IMG/VR virus record: IMGVR_UViG_3300014039_000013
Location: 32,001-96,000 of that record
Reading direction: 5' to 3' (one strand)
DNA length: 64,000 bases
Origin: a virus
Lineage: Duplodnaviria > Caudoviricetes
The notes beneath the pieces are model-generated. The model was not told the origin of the DNA. It did not search any database and worked only from the letters and a program-made list of their open reading frames with translations. Shown here one piece after another: positions 1 to 50,453 of the stretch. Made by a program: the position numbers and the translations under genes. Position 1 is the stretch's first letter; each line of letters begins with the position of its first letter.

Positions 1-3000
1 TCAAACAGTTTCTAATAGTTGTTTAAAACTATGTAAAAAATATGGAAATCTTGCTAATCTTATTAATAATATTAGATTTGATGCACAAAATATACTTCCA
101 TCAGTATTTGAATTATTTTCTAATAAGCAATTTCTCGGTTATTTAAAATCAACAAAAGATACAAATATATTTGAAAACTGGACTTCTGGAAATTTTAATA
201 ATATGTATTCTATGTATAGAGGTATATTTAACACTAATAAATCAAAAGAATTAATGACAAATTCAATATTTAGATTAGATTCTAAATTAGCTAATGATAT
301 ATCTCATACTGTTGACAATGTAACGTCAACTAAATTTTTGTAGTATTGTATTGATGACGATGGCACAATAAAATCTAGAGAAATGTTAGATTTAACTACA
401 ACTAATATACAAAGAGCTGTTGAATATGCTATTAATGGTGGGAACAGTCCATCTTTAGACATATATGACACAATTTCAAATACATATAAAGTAGATGGTT
501 CAAGAACTAACGAATCAGATAGATTGTTTGAAATAGTATTTTCAGTTCCTAATACAGGTTTGTTTTTAAACATTGATAATAGAGGAAAATTTAAAATTGC
601 AAGAAAAGAAAATAATGAATGGAAAGTATTTGAAAGTATACCATCTGAATATTTTGAATTAGTAAAACCATTTATTCAACAAATGATTAAAATCAATACA
701 AATGATATTGATTTAATGAATACAATTCTAGAACAGTATAATAATTCTAACGAAGACATGTATACTGATTTAACTAAGTTTTCATCAAGAATATTACTTC
801 GATCATTTATTTAGAATAAATTTTTATCAAATTATACATCACCTAGAGGATTAAAAGAAAGATTAAATGATTTACAAATTCCTAATAGAATTGATAAAAA
901 ATTAGGAATGATGGATCTAATTGATTTTACATCTGATAGTAGTGTATTAAATAATATTACAAATGCGTATGCATCTTTACGAGGATTAACATCATCTAAT
1001 ACATTGAAAGATGGTGAGGGAAATACACAAAATAGTGCATCTCAAAGTAGACTTCTTGGAACGTATAGAACACAATGGGCAAGGATTTAGTAGAATAATG
1101 GTGTTATGTCAACTTCTTTTTTATTAACTCATCCTGGAGCAATTAAAGGTATTTATAATGCAAAGGAATTTATGGGTAATACTACAGTAAAGCCATACAC
1201 AAAATTTACTATTTCTGAACAAGTCTATGCTCAATTTGTGATTGATTATATTCAATAGTTGACTGATAGTCCGCAAAATAAATATGCTAAAGTTTGGAAA
1301 AAGAATGTAATTGGTATTTTGCCTGCGGACTTTTCTGATAAACCAAATATATCTAGACTTGCTTGTGATTTAAATACGATTGTTGATATTAATGGAACAC
1401 AAAAGCCATTAGTTAATTTAACATTAGAAGAATTGCAAGATTTTATTAAGAATGAATTTAATAATATATATATACATATCAATAATTAGTTAAAGAAAGA
1501 CTGGAATACATTATTAAATTATTTTAATATTCCTGTTACTGCTGATGAATTATTTGATTCTAATTTTGATTATTTTAATTATAATACTGATGAGAATGGT
1601 GTAAAAGTTCCAGTATCTAATCCATTTGCTACTATATAGGAAATGATTAGAACATATAATAAAGCAAACAGAAATCATCCATTAAGTTTTATTGATTAGG
1701 TGCATTATGTATATAATAATAAAGCTAATAAATTAATGGTAAATTAGACATTAAAAGGTAATTTAGAAAGATGGAACAGTAATTCTAACTCTAAATTATT
1801 TTGGATGAGACAACATAAATTAATAGCTAGAGATTTACTTTCTAATAATTTTTCTTTTGATTTATCTTAGGGTTTATCAGTAGGAAACACATCTCTAAAA
1901 TATTTAACTGATACATATCCTAATTGGGTTGATGATTCTGGACGAATGATTATTGCAAAAGACGGAGCAGGTAAGCCTATAAAGACAGTAGAAGAATTAC
2001 AATATGCCAATATTGTTGAATTACACCCAGAGTTATAGAGATATAATTATTTTGATTTTCTATTTAGTGAATAGTTCATATTATCTACAGTTGGTAGTCC
2101 AATAGCACATCCAAGTAAATATTTTGGCGATAATTTTGAAGAAGATGAAGCATTGAGATACAATGCTTAGAATAAACGTAATGTATCTTTTACCGCACAA
2201 ATGTTAGAATTTACATTGAATATGGTAAATGGTATTCCTAAAAACTATAATATTTCTATTGTTAAAGATATAAGTGATTTATAGTATAATTCTTTTGGAT
2301 TAACTGGATTATTAAAAGCTTGGGATGGTGCAACATTTGTTCACCCAGCTATGGTGTATCTTGAAAATAATTCATTAGGCACAGATGCTGTTGGTATAAC
2401 TAAAAAACCATTCTTTCATTATTATAATACATCCACAAGTACAGGTGGTATTATAAAAACCGCAGGATTTGGATTAACTAATAATACTATGAGAAATAGT
2501 AAATTGGATTAGTTAATGGCTAAAAAAATGATGAATCACATTTGGCTTGAAGAGAGTTCTGAAAAATTATTAAATATTGATATTACTAAAAATTATAATG
2601 GAGATTTAATGTCAATTAATGGTGATGTGTACTTTTAGAAAGATGATAAATACTATAAATTACTATCTATAAATAAGACAGAAGGCAACAACACATATCA
2701 ATTAGTATTTTAGAATGTATTAAATGATGGTAGCACACAAAATACAATTGTAATTGATACAGCAAAACAATTAAATGAATTTTTACATACTGACGTGTTT
2801 GAAGTTCATTAGGATGACTCTCCTATTATTATTGATACAAATTATAAATTATATCAAATTTTAGGTGGTTGGGATTCTAGGGAATTAATAAACAATAAAT
2901 TAATACAATCAGAAAATTCAATTAAGTTTTTGGTTGATTATATTAATAACATAGGAATCAAGAAATCTAATATAGTAAAAGTACAAAATGATGTATATCA

Positions 3001-6000
3001 GCCCTTAAAAGTTGCTGACATTCATTATATTGCAACAGAAGGTGCAGTTAAACAGGGCATCACTAACATTAATAATATTGATGATTTATTAGACTTAAAT
3101 ACCGATTTAATGTACTTTCCAATGGAAGTAATTCAAGGAGGTGTATAGCTTGATAAAGAACATCACGCAGACGGTTCTGACCTGTCATTAATGACATAGG
3201 TATGGAATGCGTGTGCATTGAGAGGATATTCACACACACAAGCTGCAAATCTTTATAAAAGTTTAGCTTAGTTGTCTAGAAGAGGTACTGATGCTATTAT
3301 TAAAGCAATTGACAATTATATTGTATTTAATGATAGAGATACTATTAGAGAAATAGTTAATAAAACATTAATTAAAGAATTAGCAAATGATGTTCAAACC
3401 GACAATTTTGCTACAACTATTGCTAAAAGTATAATCAATAAAGCTAGAAAAGGTGAAGATATTCAGTATAAAGATGTGTTACTTCCTATGAGTGACAATG
3501 CTATATATGCTAAATTGGCTTCAACTATTTCAGTCTCTTTAACTAGATCTGGTATTAAACTTAAAATTCCAGGAATATTAAGTATTATTACTCCGTCTTT
3601 TGGACGAATTAAATTGTACGGAGGGAAAAAATTAAGTTAGTGGAAACCCGGTGAATTAGAAACAAAACAAAAATTATTAGAACAAGTTCCATTAGTTGAT
3701 TAGGTTCAAAAGAATTTTGTTGATGTTGAAATAGGAAGACCATACAATATCCAAGGTGACGAAAATTTATTTAATGAATTATTAACAAAATTTCCAGAAA
3801 TTAATATAAACCAAAATATTGCGACAATATTTTTAAAAACTCCATTAGAAAGAAATGAGTTAAAAAAGACTATTAATAATTATACTGGAGAATTTAAAAT
3901 ATATGAAAATATTTTAAATGGACGAGATTTGGCTCCTATGAATTATAAATTTAATTATCAAACATAGGATAATATAACATTGCGAGGCAGTCTTTTTGAT
4001 TTAGATGTTGTAAACGATTTATATATTTTAAGAACCAAAGATGTTCCATTACAAGAAAAATTTCATGTTGCATTTAAATATAATAAAAATAAATATATAG
4101 AATATTTAATAGATAATAATTTATTAAATAATATTCCAAATGAAAATGTAACAGAAGATACTGTTTTAAATATATTGCAAATAAATAACATTCCTTTATA
4201 TAATGAAAAAAGATTGTTAGCGCAGGTTCAAAAAGAAATGGATAGAACAATGCGTGCTCTATCTCCTAACGATACATATAATAATTATGTATATATTGAT
4301 AATAAACGTGTTATGGTGGATAAGAATTCTGTCTAGTTTCAAGCTTACGAACTAGGAATGAACAAAACTTTTGCAAAAGAATTTGGGTTAGAAGAAGATT
4401 CTCAATTATCAGACATACTTGACGATCCATTTTATTTTACAAAAAAACTTATTAGAAAATTTAATGCGAACATTACCAATTAGAATAACTTTGATATTGA
4501 ACTTAAAAGAATAGACGGAAAACACATTTATATATTAGATAAATCTAGAGTAAATAAATTACAAAACGTTGAATTATCTAATATTGAAAAGATATACGAC
4601 GAAGACACAATTTATAGAACTGATTATAAAGGAAATAAACTTTATAAATTAAGTTCTATGGATGATCAAGTGTATACTGATGATAATGGTAACGAAATTA
4701 TAGTTACTGAACATCCAGAATTTTTTATTAATTCACTTAATTATTCTAATATCATATTTAGCAAAAATTTAAATAACGACAATATTATAGAATTATTAAA
4801 CAAATTCTTAAATTCTAATAATAAAGTAGCACAATCAATATTAAAATTCTATAGTGATTCAAATAAATAGGTAACAAAAGTAAATGAAATGTTATCTCGT
4901 TTAACTGAAATTAACCCCGATAATATTAATTCTAAAAATATAAATTCGTTCTTAAAATACAATCCATCATTAAAAATTACAATTACAGAAGGTAATCGAA
5001 TTTATACATCATTTAAAAAGAGCCTCGAAGTAATAGCGTCGCGTACTCCAGCTCAATCATTACAAAGTGTAATGAAGATGAAAATAGTTTTATTTGATGA
5101 TCCAAATTTAAATACTGCGTTTGTAAATAATGCACAATTGTGGTTATAGGGTTCTGATATGGATATTGATGCTGTAAACTTAGCTACATATTATATTAAT
5201 AAATCTGGAAAATTACCAATATGGTCTCCGTATGCCGATATCAGAACTGAAAAATCATTAAATAAATCAATGGAATTACTTCCATTTCCAACATGCTTTA
5301 CATATGAACCAAAAATAACAACATATACACCAGAACTAATATAGGAATTTATTGATAATACAAAAGATGTATTAACATTTGATGAGCAACATAATCCTAA
5401 AATAAATACACATGTTCCATTAGAAAGTATAGCTAAAACATTGCAATATGAATATAAACTTCCAACAGAAGAATCACGTGCAATATTGACATAGGCTATT
5501 GGAATTACAAGTGAGCAACTTGATAAAACATTTGAATTATTAAAATAGTTTATTGATAAACATAATTTATATTTAAATAGTAAATCTAATGATGTTGATG
5601 GAATAATTCAAAATTATCAAATATTTAATATCAATAAAATCTTATCTGATCCAAATAATCTTAGACAATCACAAGCTCCTGTTGATGAAATTACACAAGA
5701 GCAAAAAGATATTACAAAAAATATACCAGAAGCAGAAATTGCAAAAACTGAAGTTCATGGTAATTTTGTAAGTAAAATAAGTGCTATTAATAGAAATATG
5801 GGAGGTAAAGACGGTGTAGGTATTTGTGCTGCAGCATTAAAAACGTTTGAAGGTTTATCTTTTTATTATAATCAAATATTGCAACATGGAACAAAAGAAG
5901 AATAGAATAATTTGTTATTTGATAAAAAATTATATTCTTGGAAAAACGGAGCACCTGAATTAAAAACATATAATTTGTTAGCAAATTGTTATACTCCTGA

Positions 6001-8242
6001 TATATCTACAATTAAATCAGATGCAGTAAGAAGCGCATATCTTTCTGTTGATTAGACAGTTGATGCGGCACTATTCTTGTCTGCAATGTTAGGGTTATCT
6101 GCTGATAACGCAAAAGAATTAGCATTATATAAATTAAATGCTGGTCCTAATATGATGGGGCTATATATGTATGGTGCTATGATTGGAGTTGAATTTAATG
6201 ATTTGGCTAAGACTTTAATGTCTCCTATTGCAAGATTATGTAATGAATTATTAGAAGGAAATGTATTTACTAATGAATTGAATTTTTCATCATTAGCATC
6301 TATATTTCAATTTCTTGAAAGTGGAACATGGACTTATAGATTTAATAAAAAATTATTTAATAGTAATAATTAGTTTGAAAAATAGTCTCCGTTTGAATAC
6401 GTTGATACATAGTTGTAGAAATTTTATCCAGAAGGATTACTTAAATTATTAGATAATAATGTAAATCCTAATTATATTTACGAATAGATTAATAAAATTC
6501 CTAGAATATTAGTATCTACCGATTAGGGTAGATACGTTAATAGATTTATAGATATATTAAAGAAATATGCTAAATATAGATCTATATTAAAAAAATACGA
6601 AGAAGAATATCATAATTTAAAAATACTTGCTGCCGGATCTAAAGAAACACAAGATCTTGGAAAATTATATAAATTTAATCAAGGATTACCAACTAAAGTA
6701 CCCGAAATTATATTAGCTAGTCATAATATATCAAATATATATAACGGTGATACAGTAATAAAAACTGTTAGCTTAGCAACAGATCAAACATTTTTAACTG
6801 CTGCTAATTCTGTTAATAATTCTAAATAGTTTAAATTTGGTAATGATACAGTAACTAGAACATTTAATCCGTTTTATGCTGTATATTATGTTCCTCATTT
6901 TAAAGAGTATGTTCAAGATTTTGCTAGACTTTATATAATGAATACAAATTCAGCTAAATTTAGATTTATCAATAATTTATATTCTTGGGCAGTTAATTTA
7001 TTTGATGCAACAACTTAGAAGTCAAAAATTAAAATTCTAAAAGGATTACAAAATTACGCTGATGACTATATTAATAATCAATTCTTATTAGAAAGTGGTA
7101 AAAAAATTATAATTCCAGCAGGATTTAAATATTATAATGCTTACGGTGATCTCGTAGAAAATAAAACAGATATGCTAATTTAGTTAGGAACAGAGTCAGG
7201 AAATGCTACATTTAAACGTTGGATGGATACACAGGTATTCCCAAATTTAAAACAAGGCTTAATTCATAACAATACTAGATCTTCTGCTGCTGTAAAAACA
7301 AACGAATTTATTAAGTTATTAACTACGACCATATTTGACATGAATACATCGCATAATTCGTCTATTAATTATGGATTAAATATTAATATGATGCCAAGAA
7401 CAGATAACGAAAGATTATTATTTAATATGGTTAAATCTGAATTTAATAAACTTGGAGCATATGATTATAAAATGACTAAAAAAGATTCTATTCCAATTTT
7501 AGAGTTAATGGCATTGTACAATATAGTTACATATTCAAATAAAATTGGCCAATCTACATTAACTCCTATTATGTCAGACATATAGAATCAAGGTATTTTT
7601 AAAGAGTTACATGATTTTGAAGCATACTTTGATAAAGAACGCGAAATTTATAATGGTATGTTAAATACTGACGATATTGATACTATGGGAGATAAAACAT
7701 CCATAGATTTGCTATATTACTTATCTTAGAATGAAAATACATATACTAGCAAAACTAAATATATATTTGGTCAAGATAGAAATTCATTCTAGAGGTTTCT
7801 TATGAAATCTAAATAGAAACGTAAAGAATCTCAAAATTTTTCTGATGAAAACATGGACGATTTTGATTATTCTGATATATATTCAGATGAATATAACGAT
7901 TATATTGAAGAAGATTATGGAGCTGAAGAAGACATGGAAGGAAATCAAGTATATGAAGATAAAAATTATTAGAAAATTAATCCAACTAATTCATCTGAAT
8001 TAAATTTAAATTATTTTATTAAAGGTTTTGCTGGTTTAGATTATACTAACGTGGAAGAATTAAAATCAATTCACGGAAGATATTCTATAAATGAATCTGG
8101 CAAATTAGTTGGTCCAGATCCAACACACAATGGAGAAACAAGAGAATTATGTGACATACCTAGAATTAAAACTAAATATGGAACATTTATTAATTAGAAA
8201 TTATTAGATGATATTATACAAAATTATGAAAATCCTTGCTAA
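1..8242 (+). CDS. Virion-associated multisubunit-type RNA polymerase (fused beta/beta'-like), 5'-truncated, at least 2746 aa, TAG=Gln
   Basis: Track fragments starting at 383, 908, 1259, 2930, 3272, 3980, 4658, 4889, 5159, 6077 and 7223 share one frame and end in TAG; the closing TAA is at 8240-8242. Contains RTPAQ and LWL(TAG)GSDMDID (DxDxD at 5156-5170), plus an upstream WDGATF..KKPF..KTAGF region. Confidence 0.9.
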
Positions 8243-9288
8243 TGCAATGTGTAAATAAAAGTTCTGCAGAATACCAGACGTTGAAAAATACGTCTGGTAT
8301 TCCAGAACAAACTTTAGAACCTATCTGTAGGTCTTATTTGGATACGCTTGGAAGATTTCCAAATCTTGATGAATTACCTGGTGATTCAAGTAGCACACTT
8401 AAAGATAATATTAAGTTACGACAAAACGAAAGCACTAAAATAGATAATTTGTTAGAATATACAAATACTTCTAATGTACAAGATGCAAATATAGCGTTAA
8501 ATAATATTCATTCAGATTTAGAAGTGAAAGTTATTCCTTTAAACACAGAAGCAATTGTAAAAATAGAAAAACGCCCTACTCCATATAGAGAATTAGAAAA
8601 AGAAAAAACAGATACATCTTCTGCTGATACTACCGTATTTTTAAATCAATTTGTTGATAAATTGTCTAAACTTTATGGAATAAATATAAACACAATTACT
8701 ACGTCTGAATTGTCTTCTGGCGAATTTGCTAATAAGGTAATAGATCCAGAGTATTCTGCTGCATTTATCTATAATGGATAGATATATATTAATACAGATA
8801 TTGCTTCTATAGATGCTCCTATACATGAATTATTACATTTATTGTTGGGCGGATTAAGATTTAAATATTCAGAATTATATTCTGATCTAGTAAATAAAGC
8901 CGAATAGTTTAATGGATATGAAAATTTAAAACAATTATATAAAAATAGAACACGAATGGATATTAATGAAGAAATATTTGTATCCGAATTAGCTAAACAT
9001 TTAACTGGACAAAAAAGCCAATTAGATGGATTGGATGAAGCAACAATGTATGAAATATCATACAATACGCACAGAATGCTTGATACATTAATAAAAGGTA
9101 AATGGAGTTCTATAACACTTGGAGATAAAGTTTATAATATGACATTACGTTCTTTAGTTGAGGAATTAAATTCTGTTGAATTAAATAATAATTTTTAGGG
9201 TTCGTTAACTGATGCTTAGATACATAGAACATTAGCTAATAGAAAACAGGAATTATTTGAACAAAATGTATTAAAAGAATATTGCTAA
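8242..9288 (+). CDS. Zincin-like (HExxH) metallopeptidase-domain virion protein, 348 aa, TAG=Gln
   Basis: ATG overlaps the upstream TAA (TAATG). Joins track ORFs 8236 and 8956 through TAGs. Motif AFIYNG(TAG)IYIN..APIHELLH at 8761-8838; TAA at 9286-9288. Confidence 0.8.
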
Positions 9289-12200
9289 TGGCTTGTGTAT
9301 ATGAATATAAAGGACATCGTTTTAATAATGAATTAGAATTAAACGATTTCTTATTAGAAAAAGAAAATTATTTATCAAAATATGGTGATATTGTTTTTGA
9401 ACGATCTTCTCAATTTTTACACGCTAAATCTTAGGTAGATTCTTTAATACAAGAATCTAAAGAATTGAAAAAGAAATTAGATCAAAGTAAAAAAACATAT
9501 ATTGATGGAGAAATACAAGATAATCCAAATCCGCCTTATACTGGTGTAAATACATTTTTAAGTGGCTTAAAAGATTCTGAAGGTAATTTGTTATTTCCAG
9601 AGTTTAATGAAGATGAATATTGGAAAAGAAGATACGATGCTTGGGATAATTTAGAATATACTGATGATGAACGAGAATTATTCTTTAATGATCCAAATAG
9701 TGTAACCAGATTACCAAAATCTCAATATTAGAATTACAGGGAGATAATGGAAGATAAATGGAAACATCAAGCTGAATATGGCGAAACAGTTCATAGTATA
9801 TTCCAAATATTTTTTAGCAAAATTAAATCTGGACAAAACGCAGGACAAATAGTCGGAACAATGTCTGATAATTTTTTAGAAAATATTTATTTACCTAAAA
9901 TGCTTGATATGAATACTATTAATAAAAAATGTATTCATGATGCAATCAAATTAGCTAGAGAATTTAAAACACAATTAGAATAGTAGTTTGGTTCTGATTT
10001 AGACTATTATCCAGAAGTTTCTGTAATGGGAGAAAGTATTCAAGAAGTTCAAGGTAAAGGGAATAAAGTACTTGGACGTTTGGATTTATTAATTATTGAT
10101 GGAAAAGGTAACACACATATTGTTGATTATAAAACATCTCCTAAACCGTTTTATTCACAAGGTGGTATTAAAGGATATAATTCTGCTAAATAGTTGGCAT
10201 TTACGTATTAGTTAGCTGTATATAATAGAATTTTACAAAGACATGGAATTGATGTTTCTAAAAGCGATATGTTAATTGTTCCATTACAATTAACTAATTT
10301 TAGAAAAGAAGGAGATAAATATGTTTATGATTCTATTGATCCAATACAACCAGAAAGTAAAACTAATGATGGTAAAAGAATACCACCTATCCTTTGGCAT
10401 TCTATTAAAAATAAAATTGAACATTCTTTTAATATTTAGAAAAACTTACAAGAATTTTTTCCTGAAAAAATTGAACAAGAACCTGTTTCAGAAAAATTAA
10501 GTTCTAACGTTACAAGTGTAATGAAATAGTTTTTTAAAGAATATTAGTCTCCAGATATTACTGACGAAGAAATATTAGAAGAATTTAAAGAACAAAAATC
10601 ATTAACACCAATTAACGGGTATTTAAATTATAAATTAGGACAGAAAGAATTTAGTGTATCTGAAAAAGAAGGAGAAGCAGTATTACTTAAAAAAGTAAAA
10701 GATTATTATAAATTACTTGAAAATTTCAAGGTTAGAACTACAGAAAATATTAGTTCTAATCTTGAAAAAGCAATGACAGAAGACGATTTTACAATGAAAT
10801 TACCTAAAATATCTGTTGATAATAGATATGAAAACGCCAATTGGCTTTCAGATATATTACATAAATACACACAAGGTAGTTGGGAAATTGTTAATTGTGA
10901 ACAAGTTAAGCAATATGGATTAATATTATTAAGGAATAAAATTACAGGTTAGATAGATGTTAAAAAAGTAACATCAAGACCAGTAATGTATTTAAGACAT
11001 TTTAATCCAAAAAGCAATTTACTTAGTGGAGGATTAATTGAAGATTCTGTAGAAAATATTTCTCGTTCTTCTGTTAGGGTTGGTTCGGATGGTAAAATGT
11101 CTGATAAATCTTTGATGTTAGAATCTAGAAATGGAAATATAGAATTAATTGAAACAATGTTAATTCTTAATAATTTAAAAAGTTTATTTAGTAATGGTTC
11201 GTCTCTTGGAAGTGTTGAAATTTTAAATCCTTATGCTGGTAGAGGTATGACTGCTTCTAATGAAGAATTAGTATATACTGTAAATCGTCTTTGTAAATTA
11301 TCGAATTAGGCTTAGACAGAATTTGGAAAAGATATAAGAGTTTGTTCTAAATATCAATTAGCATTAGATGAACTTACTGATATTTTAACGACAGGTAAAA
11401 ATAAATAGTGGCTTGGTGACTATAAATAGTTTTAGACCTTTGAAAGCTGTTTAAATGATTTAGATAAAGCTAACGACAATACTATTCCAGAAAAAATTCG
11501 AGCTTTAGAAGATTTTATCAGCAGAATGGAAAATGAAGAATAGTGGACAAGATCATTACAATCGTTTGAATATACACAGGACAAATTAGTACAAAATTAT
11601 AGAAGATTATATAATACTGCATAGTTAGCATTATCAGATTTAAGAGGTATTAATTTTAGACAATAGAATATTGAAAGTTCAGATTGGATAAACTCTATTT
11701 AGTCATTCAATAAAGGTATTTAGGGAAATAAAATAGATAACCCCGGTAATCTTGCAAGTGATACGCTGAATCTAATTACCAAACAAACCACTATTGCATA
11801 TCAAAACGTAAGAGATTCATTACGCGAACCTGTTGCTAAATTACACGAACTTGTAGCAAAAGTTAAATAGGAATATGGATTTAATTTATCTGGTAATAGA
11901 GTAAATATTTTTAAAAATTTATATGAAAATCCAGAAAAAGTTGGTGGAGATTTTAGATTTAAATTATTATCAGACCCAACGTTAAAAAAATCTGAAAAAG
12001 AGTTATTACAATATTGCTTAAGATTAATTAATAAAAATAGATTAGGATATTCTGATAAGTTATGCGAAGAAGCAGAAAAGAAAGGCAATATTGATTATTA
12101 TAAAGTTCCTCTTGCTGTTGGTGGAATGGAATCACAAGTTGCTTAGGATGGATTATTAAAATCTTTAAAAATCAAACTTAAGGGTCTCGCTCCATCTAGA

Positions 12201-14054
12201 ATTATGGATGATTTTTCTAATAAAATGAAAGGTGTTGGTTATGCAGAAGAAAATGATGAATTAACAAAAGCTAATTCTGATTTATTTAATATGAATACAA
12301 CATTTGATTGGGGAGAAGCAGCTGATCGACAAGATATAATTAATAGAACTATTGCTAAACACGGCAGTATTGGATATTTTGAACATAATCTAGAAACATT
12401 AACATTAAAACATTATTTTGCATACTCAATGAAAAATAATATTAATAAAGTATTTCCTATTATGAAAGCTGCTATGTCTCATATAGCATATCAAGGATTT
12501 ATTGCTAATCATAATTTCTAGAATGATATTAATTATATGCAAGATTATATTCGTAATAAAATTAAAAACGAATCTATTATACCTAAAAATGTACAATTAT
12601 TATCTGAATATACTAATAAAATTAAAACAATAGCATCTTATTCTGTATTAGCTTTTTCTCCTGTTCAAGGATTATATTAGTCTATACAAGGTATTTGGAA
12701 TGATATTCGTTTAATAATTTAGAAACCAGATATGGTAGGCAAATATGGAAAATCTGCATTTACTTTAAAAAATGTATCTGATTCATTTGCTTCAGCATAT
12801 AAAGATTTATTTGTATTTAGTGATAAAGAAACAATTAATTCATTAATTAATAAACAATATGCTTTAAATGATATGGATATGAATCAATATGTTGAACGAG
12901 TTTAGTCTTAGCCTTCAGGTATATTTAATTTTAATAGTTGGGCTATGAAATTTTCTTCAAGACCAGATTATTATAATCGTTTAACAATCTTTGGCGCACA
13001 AATGAGAGCAGATGGATGTTGGGAAGCGCATTCAATTAAAGATGGTAAACTTATTTATGATTGGAGAAAAGATAAGCGTTTTGAATTATTTGCCAATGAT
13101 AAAAATGTTGGTTCAGATGAATATAATTATCAAAGAGCATTATATTATGAAATGTGTCAATAGTTTGTAAATGAACATACAAAAAATTCTGATGGAACTG
13201 ATTTTAATTATGTAATTGGCGAAAAAGTTGCATTACCAAAAGCTTATACTAATTTATAGGCAGAATCTTATAAATCATTATCGGATGATATTTACGGATA
13301 TTATTCACATGAAAAAAAAGCTATGCTTCATGCAACATGGATTGGTTCAATGTTTATGCAATTTAAAACTTTCTGGACAGGTAAAAAGAATCAATATTTT
13401 GGTTCTGGTGGATTTAAATTAAGAGGTTCATTTCAACAATTAACAGATCCTGATGGTAATTTACTTTATTATAAAGTTGATGAGAATGGCAAAATAACAG
13501 AAGATTTGACCACAAAAAAAACTTCGTTTCCTGCAATTAAATGGTAGGGTCAATGGCAAGAAGGAATTGCAGTTACTTTAGCAAGCGCAATGAGCTGGAA
13601 TCCTATAAAAACATCAAAGAATTTATATGAGCAATGGTATTCTACTAACCCACAACTTAGAAATGCATATAGATCTAATTATAAATAGTTAATGTTTGAT
13701 TTATTTATGTGGGTTATAATTGGAAATATTGCTGCTGCTGGTCTTACTGCTTGGCTAAAAGATTTAAAAGAGGAATCAAAACTTGATCCTAATCCTATTA
13801 AACTTGCAGCTGCTAATGTTCTTGCTAAATCAATTAATAATTCTTTAATGGATTTTAATATATATGATTCTTTTGTTAATCCTTGGGCAAAATGGACTCC
13901 ATTTATGTTTTCTTGGGCTGGCAATACTGCTAGTAGATTATGGAATACAATATTTGGATCTACTACCTTTTTGGATTGTATTTTAAAAACATTTTCTGCA
14001 ACAAACTAGTTAAAACCAGGATTAGATTTATTAATTCCTAAAGATTCTGAATAA
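9288..14054 (+). CDS. Large virion/ejection protein, 1588 aa, with a PD-(D/E)xK nuclease-like domain and a C-terminal hydrophobic segment, TAG=Gln
   Basis: Track fragments 9465, 9747, 10986, 12204, 12945, 13323 and 13692 share one frame. Motifs GETVH..YPEV..GRLDLLIID..IVDYKT..Y(TAG)LAVY; hydrophobic MFDLFMWVIIGNIAAAGLTAWL near 13692; TAA at 14052-14054. Confidence 0.82.
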
Positions 14055-49111: not shown

Positions 49112-49465
49112 TTAAAAAGGCATATATGATTTTAAAATATCATATATTGTTTTTAACATATTTTTTGGTTCAATATCAAATGTTGGAAATTCTTTACATT
49201 GATAACTAAAATCATCACAAACTACAGAAAGACCCTTAATAAAATCTTCTGGTAAATTAAGTTTCTCATTTAGTTTATGTAAAATAGAATATGCTGTTAC
49301 TCCTGGCTTTTTCTGCTTTAAATTATATGTAAGATAACCAACCAAAGATATTAAAGCAAATTTAGTTTTAATATCTGTATTTAAATATCCTAATGAATAT
49401 TTATTAGCATATTCCTGCCGCATTTGACTATAAGGCGGCGAAGTTTCTATATCTGGTCGCAACAT
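49112..49465 (-). CDS. Hypothetical protein
   Basis: 117-aa ORF. Confidence 0.7.
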   Translation of the reverse strand: MLRPDIETSPPYSQMRQEYANKYSLGYLNTDIKTKFALISLVGYLTYNLKQKKPGVTAYSILHKLNEKLNLPEDFIKGLSVVCDDFSYQCKEFPTFDIEPKNMLKTIYDILKSYMPF

Positions 49466-50453
49466 AATATGCTACTAATTTTAGTAATTGTGAAAATTCT
49501 TTGAATCCTTGTAAATACATTTTTTTAGTCATCGGTACTACTTTCGTATAATAATTTGGAATTGTACTTACAACTAAAAAATTACCTTTTATTTTTGGAT
49601 TATCCAAATTAAAGAATTTTTTTGCACACAAACTCAATAAATAAGCATACATTCCAAGTTCACGTTGATAATGATAACGATCAATTGCTTCATGAAATTC
49701 ATTAACCATTTTACCTGTTGTTTTGACATCATTTACAATAATAGTATTATTTTCAAAATCAATAGTAAATTGGTCTAATTTACTTTTTAATTTTAAAATA
49801 AAATGTTCATTATTATAATTAACATTTACATCAAGTAAAATAGTACGTTCGTAGCCATTTTCTGGTTGTTGTAATAGCCCACTAGGATGAAGTAATTTTT
49901 GTATCTGAGAACTTCTAGAAACACTCTCTAAACATGAATTTACACAATTCCTATGTCGTTCAGATAAATAAATTGGAATCTTATTTAAATGAAATTTTTC
50001 TTCAAAATCAGCTCTGTTTTTCCAATAATTATTACATTTTAATTTAATATCTGAAATTTTCTTATCAGATAAAAAACCACCATAATAATCGTATTTTATA
50101 GCAGCACTAATTATTTGTTCATTACTAGGAGTTTTTCTAGTATTTGTGTATAATTCATCTGCTATATAACCCATTTTTGCTGTAGGTCTATCAACACAAT
50201 CTACCATAAAAAATGATTCTGGTTGTAATATTAATTCATGAACAGCACTACCTACTATTAAAGAATCACTAAAAGCGTTAAACTTTCCTTCAAAAAACTG
50301 TTCTGGAGTACCACCCTGTTTTGGATTTATTAATCCTAATCTAGAGTTTGATATATAATTAGAAAAACGCTTAGAAAAATATATTTCATCAGATATATTT
50401 TCTAAGCGTAAACTTTCTATTATTGGTTCGATTTGTATTTCATTTAAATTCAA
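49428..50453 (-). CDS. PD-(D/E)xK exonuclease (RecE/ExoVIII-like)
   Basis: ISNSRL, GSAVHELIL, KSKLD..NDVKTT, YQRELGMY. Confidence 0.82.
   Translation of the reverse strand: MNLNEIQIEPIIESLRLENISDEIYFSKRFSNYISNSRLGLINPKQGGTPEQFFEGKFNAFSDSLIVGSAVHELILQPESFFMVDCVDRPTAKMGYIADELYTNTRKTPSNEQIISAAIKYDYYGGFLSDKKISDIKLKCNNYWKNRADFEEKFHLNKIPIYLSERHRNCVNSCLESVSRSSQIQKLLHPSGLLQQPENGYERTILLDVNVNYNNEHFILKLKSKLDQFTIDFENNTIIVNDVKTTGKMVNEFHEAIDRYHYQRELGMYAYLLSLCAKKFFNLDNPKIKGNFLVVSTIPNYYTKVVPMTKKMYLQGFKEFSQLLKLVAYYVATRYRNFAAL

Follow-up and report, generated by a model that had tools for sequence, protein, structure and literature searches.

Conserved facing cysteines at the ends of consecutive proteins in a highly divergent crassvirus-type RNA polymerase cargo block suggest a head-to-tail tether

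The DNA considered here is a 64,000-nucleotide stretch (hereafter the window), positions 32,001-96,000 of the IMG/VR virus record IMGVR_UViG_3300014039_000013 (Caudoviricetes), a complete 160,403-bp genome with terminal repeats from a divergent crAss-like gut phage. Its left end holds most of a block of four consecutive genes for putative RNA polymerase (RNAP) cargo proteins, which carry conserved cysteine (Cys) residues at precisely those ends that face a neighboring member. On the plus strand between 1 and 14,054, translation table 11 gives only short open reading frames (ORFs), while reading TAG as sense opens three long ones, P0001 (2..8242), P0002 (8242..9288) and P0003 (9288..14054), with 48, 4 and 32 in-frame TAGs, respectively. 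Encoded outside the window at genome positions 114,254-114,343 (L168:2254-2343) is a tRNA that reads UAG through its CTA anticodon (on the basis of which ARAGORN labels it Pyl); this tRNA fits TAG-recoded late genes. Alignment columns that hold TAG here are polar in relatives, often glutamine. TAG is nearly absent from the early genes on the minus strand of the window.

The original prediction had linked three virion proteins through their terminal Cys. The three in the window do carry facing Cys, but the chain has four members, and the Cys near the start of the RNA-polymerase-like giant had been missed. The additional first member, A0, lies directly upstream of the window (genome 22232-30871, L167:8232-16871) and is a protein of 2,879 amino acids (aa) with a helicase domain (AAA_30/UvrD_C-like SF1 helicase region at aa 1420-1756, E 2.6e-7), which would make it packaged helicase-like cargo. 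It has a Cys 8 residues before its C-terminus, kept in relatives, and none near its N-terminus. The tails of its relatives, for instance ..NSCPITIKIKL and ..GTCS (tails are written up to the stop codon), face the M-x-x-C start of the giant protein that follows.

That giant is RNA-polymerase-like and 3,123 aa long; its gene starts at genome position 30871, 1,130 nt ahead of the window, giving the N-terminus MNKC. P0001 is its C-terminal 2,746 aa (2..8242, plus strand), open only with TAG read as Gln and ending ..ENPC. A DxDxD catalytic-type motif, G-S-D-M-D-I-D, lies at 5150..5170 (plus strand), and its three aspartates (D333, D335 and D337 in the numbering of alignment A3) are invariant in 24 relatives. 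We modeled 660 residues of P0001 around this motif (predicted local distance difference test, pLDDT, 76) and compared the model with 48,161 PDB chains. The top match was 6VR4, the virion RNAP (gp66) of phage phi14:2, at Z 6.8 and a root-mean-square deviation of 4.4 over 159 residues; the match covers residues 944-1503 of that chain, spanning its DFDID, and although the Z score is modest, the identity of the top match carries weight. With the same model, the top 50 Foldseek matches were all RNAP beta-prime subunits, each of them weak (E 0.011 or worse).

P0002 (8242..9288, plus strand) is a 348-aa link protein running from MQCV.. to ..KEYC, with an N-terminal domain (approximately residues 1-112) and a zincin-type domain whose metal-binding motif, H-E-L-L-H, is encoded at 8824..8838 (plus strand). 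In an alignment of 50 diverse homologues, C3, C348 and H195-E196-x-x-H199 are invariant, and an AlphaFold2 model (pLDDT 84.7) places both terminal Cys in terminal coil. We call this protein zincin-like on the strength of its motif: Pfam gave no match, Foldseek and VIA structure searches returned none that was convincing (best Z 4.3), and one homologue is labeled DUF4157 by its source. The last member, P0003 (9288..14054, plus strand), is 1,588 aa long, running from MACV.. to ..KDSE, and carries a PD-(D/E)XK nuclease domain at 9762..10292 (plus strand; aa 159-335; Pfam PF12705, E 2.3e-8). About 100 residues from its C-terminus is a strongly hydrophobic 18-residue stretch (aa 1473-1490, window 13704-13757) that might insert into a membrane at the chain's free end.

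Homology searches recovered little else. PHROGs recognized none of the three window proteins, and eight other late proteins had no confident match there, to hallmark capsid, portal or terminase families or otherwise, with one marginal hit to a family of unknown function; PDB sequence searches (phmmer and profile) gave nothing useful for the chain proteins, and a locus search with a single protein found no matches. Sequence similarity to gp66, gp50 and gp65 of the characterized crassviruses was likewise not detected, there being no PDB match by phmmer or profile and no significant BLASTP or hhalign result against g065 and gp49, and only the PD-(D/E)XK domain gives a sequence link to crassvirus proteins. 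We take the block to be a divergent form of the RNA polymerase cargo block of crassviruses, in a very divergent lineage. This homology, and the location of the genes among other TAG-recoded late genes, suggest that the chain proteins would be packaged and ejected.

The starting observation was a DNA motif, TTGCTAATG-nnn-TGTGTA, said to be shared by both junctions in the window, and it is there: TTGCTAATGCAATGTGTA at 8236-8253 and TTGCTAATGGCTTGTGTA at 9282-9299 agree at 15 of 18 nt. Allowing up to two mismatches, it has three matches in the window against 0.32 expected, a number attained by none of 100 shuffles. At the P0001-P0002 junction (8237..8253, plus strand; junction 2 of the chain), TGC for the C-terminal Cys of P0001 (8237-8239) is followed by TAA (8240-8242) overlapping ATG (8242-8244), then by CAA, TGT for Cys3 of P0002 (8248-8250) and GTA. 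Junction 3 (9283..9299, plus strand) repeats this arrangement, with TGC for the C-terminal Cys of P0002 (9283-9285), TAA (9286-9288) overlapping ATG (9288-9290), GCT, TGT for Cys3 of P0003 (9294-9296) and GTA. The predicted protein termini are also as claimed, including the absence of a C-terminal Cys from the last protein, provided that TAG is read as sense. The near-identity of the junction DNA is mostly the footprint of the peptide pattern C-stop-M-x-C-V plus the TAATG overlap. Both C-terminal Cys codons are TGC, which the four chain genes use 5 times against 25 for TGT; relatives use either codon, and the agreement may be chance.

We sought these Cys in 80 related viral-contig loci that preserve the arrangement of a middle ORF between two large ones and that include both standard-code and TAG-recoded genomes. 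A junction was scored as following the rule when the upstream protein had a Cys among its last 9 residues and the downstream one had another at residue 2-6, whatever the start codon. This held on both sides at 76 of 81 distinct adjacent junctions. Among the five others, one has its start outside the scan window and obeys the rule, two are breaks of the giant gene seen in single loci and absent from sister loci, one has a C-terminal extension, and one marks the chain's outer limit, with no Cys on either side. At both junctions, C-x(0-2)-stop closes the upstream protein and M-x(1-4)-C opens the next. Relatives differ in whether Cys is encoded by TGT or TGC and whether the stop is TAA or TGA, as well as in the frame relation and the spacing (from -11 to +29 nt), and some starts are GTG. 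The terminal Cys are therefore conserved at the amino-acid rather than the nucleotide level. A lack of conservation in homologues would have counted against the original prediction, which on this point stands up strongly.

This variation bears directly on an alternative raised in the original prediction, namely that the DNA motif is a translational signal, for termination-reinitiation coupling or frameshifting, with the Cys as its by-product. The shared nucleotides, the rare TGC at both junctions and the TAATG stop-start overlap are what such a signal might look like, but in relatives its nucleotides, stop codon, frame and spacing change while the Cys stay, and phage crAss001 has one facing pair encoded on opposite strands. 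We reject this alternative as scarcely credible. The overlap itself, which had been taken to favor matched synthesis, reflects ordinary tight packing of genes, and it is not conserved.

Conservation is equally clear protein by protein. Nearly all of 162 database homologues of P0002 start with M-x(0-4)-C and end with C-x(0-1), down to 38% identity. A Cys lies in the last 4 residues of the giant protein in 28 of the 28 distinct relatives listed, and at residue 3-5 in 119 of 120 P0003 homologues, none of which (0/120) has one in its last 3 residues; the C-termini of the last members comprise 30 different tails, none ending in Cys. Both C4 and C3123 of the giant occur in 100% of 9 full-length relatives, compared with 0-44% for its other 10 Cys, and C3 of P0003 in 100% of 59 relatives, compared with 0-51% for its other Cys. 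Taken together, the caps (C4 and C3123 of P0001, C3 and C348 of P0002, C3 of P0003) all stand at 100%, while the 21 other Cys in these proteins range from 0 to 55%. As a background, 131 other ORFs of the genome have a Cys at residues 2-6 in 6% of cases and in the last 9 residues in 11%, so that all six facing ends would carry one by chance with a probability of about 3e-7, conservation not yet counted. Chance is excluded as an explanation of the facing Cys.

Overall Cys content is low in the chain proteins, at 0.14-0.86% where the genome background is 1.44%. Cys is missing altogether from many late proteins 400-1,070 aa long (for example those encoded at genome 14739-16349, 20392-22239, 114860-117595, 118815-120260 and 120908-126729), and Cys purging may reach beyond the cargo chain. 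Outside the cargo block, a 267-aa early-region protein (window 49404-50207, minus strand) has Cys at both ends, with an MVDC start and an ..AAGIC end.

The same pattern appears in characterized crassviruses. In phi14:2, g067 (1,797 aa) has a single Cys as its last residue (1797), the RNAP g066 (PDB 6VR4; 2,180 aa) has Cys 3 and 2179, and g065 (1,421 aa) has Cys 3; these four are the only Cys in 5,398 residues, and all are at facing termini. In crAss001, gp47 (2,341 aa) has Cys 2339, gp50 (2,412 aa) has Cys 5, 1334 and 2404, and gp49 (1,349 aa) has Cys 5. Here gp47 is encoded on the opposite strand and the facing-end pattern still holds, which shows that it belongs to the proteins rather than to an operon. 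Phage cr116_1 behaves like crAss001, with Cys at the facing ends.

A fused form is found in the Suoliviridae phage cr1_1, whose block consists of two proteins. The first, gp_19430 (4,551 aa), is collinear with gp47 (E 1e-11) and then with the RNAP (E 8e-59), and its only Cys are 4026 and 4548; residues 1-4025 contain none. With gp47 and the RNAP fused, the facing Cys pair between them is gone, and Cys 4548 faces the MSIIC start of the next protein. This fusion test rests on one Suoliviridae genome. The second protein, gp_19429 (2,007 aa; Cys 5 and 1884, with a Cys-free stretch between them), has HExxH at residue 517 followed by PD-(D/E)XK at 794-1013 (E 5e-12). It is consistent with a fused P0002-P0003, as a motif-level stand-in only, given that the zincin family profile showed no significant match to g065, gp49 or gp_19429. 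The position of the PD-(D/E)XK domain varies: it is in the last member here (window 9762-10292) and in Suoliviridae (L169, cr1_1 gp_19429), and in the gp47-like member in Steigviridae (L163, crAss001 gp47 aa 1716-1850). These placements indicate that domains have moved along the chain.

Fused forms raise the question of whether the Cys are relics or recognition marks of polyprotein processing, either zincin protease sites or points of Cys-dependent self-cleavage, with no tether involved. The paper on phi14:2 describes the three block proteins as fused in some phages and probably cleaved, places a zincin domain in the block and does not mention cysteine; the invariant HExxH of P0002 would suit such a protease. 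The proteins here, however, come from separate genes and need no cleavage, the fused cr1_1 seam has no Cys, Pfam detects no Hint, intein or other self-processing domain in the three window proteins, and the P0002 termini are short coils in the model. We consider processing very unlikely.

Within the lineage studied here, the rule follows the protein ends wherever these fall. It holds in four- and five-gene partitions of the block, including variants with an additional 334-aa protein that is Cys-capped at both ends, with a middle protein of 804-823 aa, or with a giant that is additionally split, the upstream part ending ..CG and the downstream part beginning at a GTG start as MANNC. P0002 homologues of 610-918 aa with inserted domains keep both caps and often have just two Cys, one at residue 4 and the other in the penultimate position; in the 918-aa homologue the only Cys are C4 and C917. 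Between the N-terminal and zincin domains of the longer homologues (P0050, P0124-P0153) lies ART-PolyVal (PF18760), once together with an HD domain (PF01966); Pfam does not find PF18760 in P0002 itself. The link protein thus seems, judging from these domain matches, to be a carrier for variable effector modules. We found no fusions in this lineage: all 31 longer P0002 homologues owe their length to internal insertions, and all 120 P0003 homologues are unfused.

Several relatives also have the giant gene broken inside its catalytic motif (..LQGSD|Y, then a stop), at L087:5432-6610 and at the homologous site in L098, L128 and L155-L157. A gene for a LAGLIDADG endonuclease lies in the insert (Pfam E 8e-22), which also resembles a group I intron at a score below threshold (27.9 bits, cut-off 50). 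These intron-type ORF breaks have no Cys flanks, and the copy in the window is uninterrupted. The rule tracks protein ends, not domains.

One way to account for conserved terminal Cys is that each acts alone, as an anchor to the portal or inner capsid, in homodimers, or as a mark for packaging or ejection. The structural proteins of crAss001 do use many inter-subunit disulfides, and two loci (L149 and L152) keep the facing N-terminal Cys though the upstream Cys is no longer terminal, as independent action would allow. What this leaves unexplained is that, in every genome checked, the only caps missing are the N-terminal one of the first member and the C-terminal one of the last, and that both caps are lost jointly at the fused seam. 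We regard independent action as unlikely. An intramolecular disulfide joining the two termini of each protein was considered as a general explanation and rejected; the end members have one cap each, and g067 and g065 of phi14:2 have a single Cys apiece.

We therefore return to the head-to-tail Cys link put forward in the original prediction. Its facing-ends logic holds, also in phi14:2, crAss001, cr116_1 and cr1_1, and it is the best-supported reading. The sequences establish the rule, its conservation, the way it depends on true protein ends and the lack of a Cys pair at a fused seam; that a bond exists, what chemistry it has and how it would serve packaging or ejection are our inference. On balance, we favor the interpretation that the facing terminal Cys tether the cargo proteins head to tail, most probably through inter-protein disulfides. 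Such a tether would account for caps at facing ends only, for cap numbers that scale with the number of seams, for their loss at the fused seam, for the purging of other Cys, and for the location of the caps in terminal coil. A disulfide is favored here as the simplest chemistry and one with precedent in crassvirus particles.

The facing Cys could instead share a metal ion, zinc or iron, in a bridge released by chelation, a change of pH or unfolding. The same facing-ends pattern would be expected, acidic residues that might serve as extra ligands often stand beside the C-terminal Cys (..E-x-C-D/E), and metal binding, unlike disulfide formation, would be compatible with the reducing cytoplasm. 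Each junction, however, offers two thiols only, with no conserved His or further Cys seen nearby, and one common cluster is hard to reconcile with a cap number that scales with the number of junctions (2, 4, 6, 8). We judge a metal bridge distinctly unlikely.

Several points weigh against a disulfide tether. Disulfides are unlikely to form in a reducing cytoplasm, the gut is anoxic, and an oxidizing step is not obvious. A search of the phage for thioredoxin and glutaredoxin found none, and no thiol oxidoreductase was seen, although for Erv1 the control matched in none of the genomes, so that this part of the search carries no weight. The cargo of crassviruses is not resolved in published cryo-electron microscopy maps. 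In the L149 and L152 loci mentioned above, the Cys of the zincin protein lies 25-100 residues from its end while the facing Cys is kept, and elsewhere the caps are not strictly terminal, with 8 residues beyond the Cys in A0 and in crAss001 gp50. Finally, the chain proteins of this lineage keep 3-12 other Cys, which could scramble disulfides.

If a disulfide tether does form, inter-protein bonds might arise once the cargo sits in the particle; approximately 7,900 residues could then enter the particle at a fixed ratio and leave through the tail as one continuous thread, and reduction of the links in the host cytoplasm would release the enzymes. Generalized across crassviruses, this would amount to a reducible pseudo-polyprotein, in which separate cargo proteins are joined by terminal disulfides into a thread of about 5,000-9,000 residues, packed in fixed proportion, drawn through the tail in one piece and cut in the reducing host cytoplasm. 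Such a thread would be modular, with enzyme cassettes (the 348-aa zincin, or its ADP-ribosyltransferase-bearing variants) added by placing a Cys at each end. We put this fuller model forward tentatively, as slightly less probable than an even chance.

Crassviruses are the most abundant human gut viruses, and how they pack and inject several enzymes of hundreds of kilodaltons is an open question, the cargo being invisible in published virion maps. The simple, order-wide sequence rule described here names the residues involved and offers a concrete and cheap test. A real tether would explain why this block can come equally well as separate genes or as fused polyproteins, why Cys has been purged from the cargo except at its ends, and how new effector modules are added to the injected set. 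Facing terminal Cys would also provide an annotation handle, marking cargo genes in divergent phages where family searches fail, as they do here.

Among known systems, the closest are the blocks g067-g066-g065 of phi14:2 and gp47-gp50-gp49 of crAss001, whose proteins have been shown by mass spectrometry to be packaged. They resemble the present block in having a DxDxD giant that best matches 6VR4, giant neighbors and a zincin motif, in being placed where the late genes end, and in carrying facing terminal Cys with few or no others; their proteins are Cys-free besides the caps and one extra Cys. In contrast, the block described here has four members rather than three, a zincin that forms a separate 348-aa link, the nuclease domain in a different member, recoded TAG and more internal Cys. 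The window thus adds a small enzyme as a full link of the chain, and domain insertions that leave the caps untouched.

A literature search on Crassvirales with terminal cysteine or disulfide returned no paper describing the facing-Cys pattern. The crAss001 virion study (Bayfield et al., 2023; PMC10172136) describes disulfides between different proteins of the tail and portal vertex and treats gp47, gp49 and gp50 as packaged cargo that needs partial unfolding to exit, never mentioning cysteine in the cargo. Those structural disulfides are likewise covalent Cys-Cys bonds between different virion proteins of a crassvirus, but they were seen in density and brace a rigid assembly, whereas the link proposed here would join mobile cargo termini and is predicted from sequence.

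Like crassviruses, N4-like phages eject a giant virion RNA polymerase plus partners into the host. In their ejection proteins (N4 gp50; DEV gp71-73), Cys is strongly suppressed, which has been ascribed to passage through the periplasm (PMC11445570); these proteins are essentially Cys-free, whereas crassvirus cargo retains precisely the terminal Cys. The fused gp_19430 of cr1_1 presents the same modules in the same order, joined by a peptide bond at a Cys-free seam, where the block described here has separate, capped genes. A functional parallel may be drawn with AB-type toxins, in which a reducible inter-chain disulfide keeps the translocated enzyme attached to its partner and is broken in the reducing cytosol, releasing the enzyme. 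The toxin chains derive from one nicked polypeptide and have no relation to phage cargo in sequence, fold or biology; the likeness would lie in the working principle.

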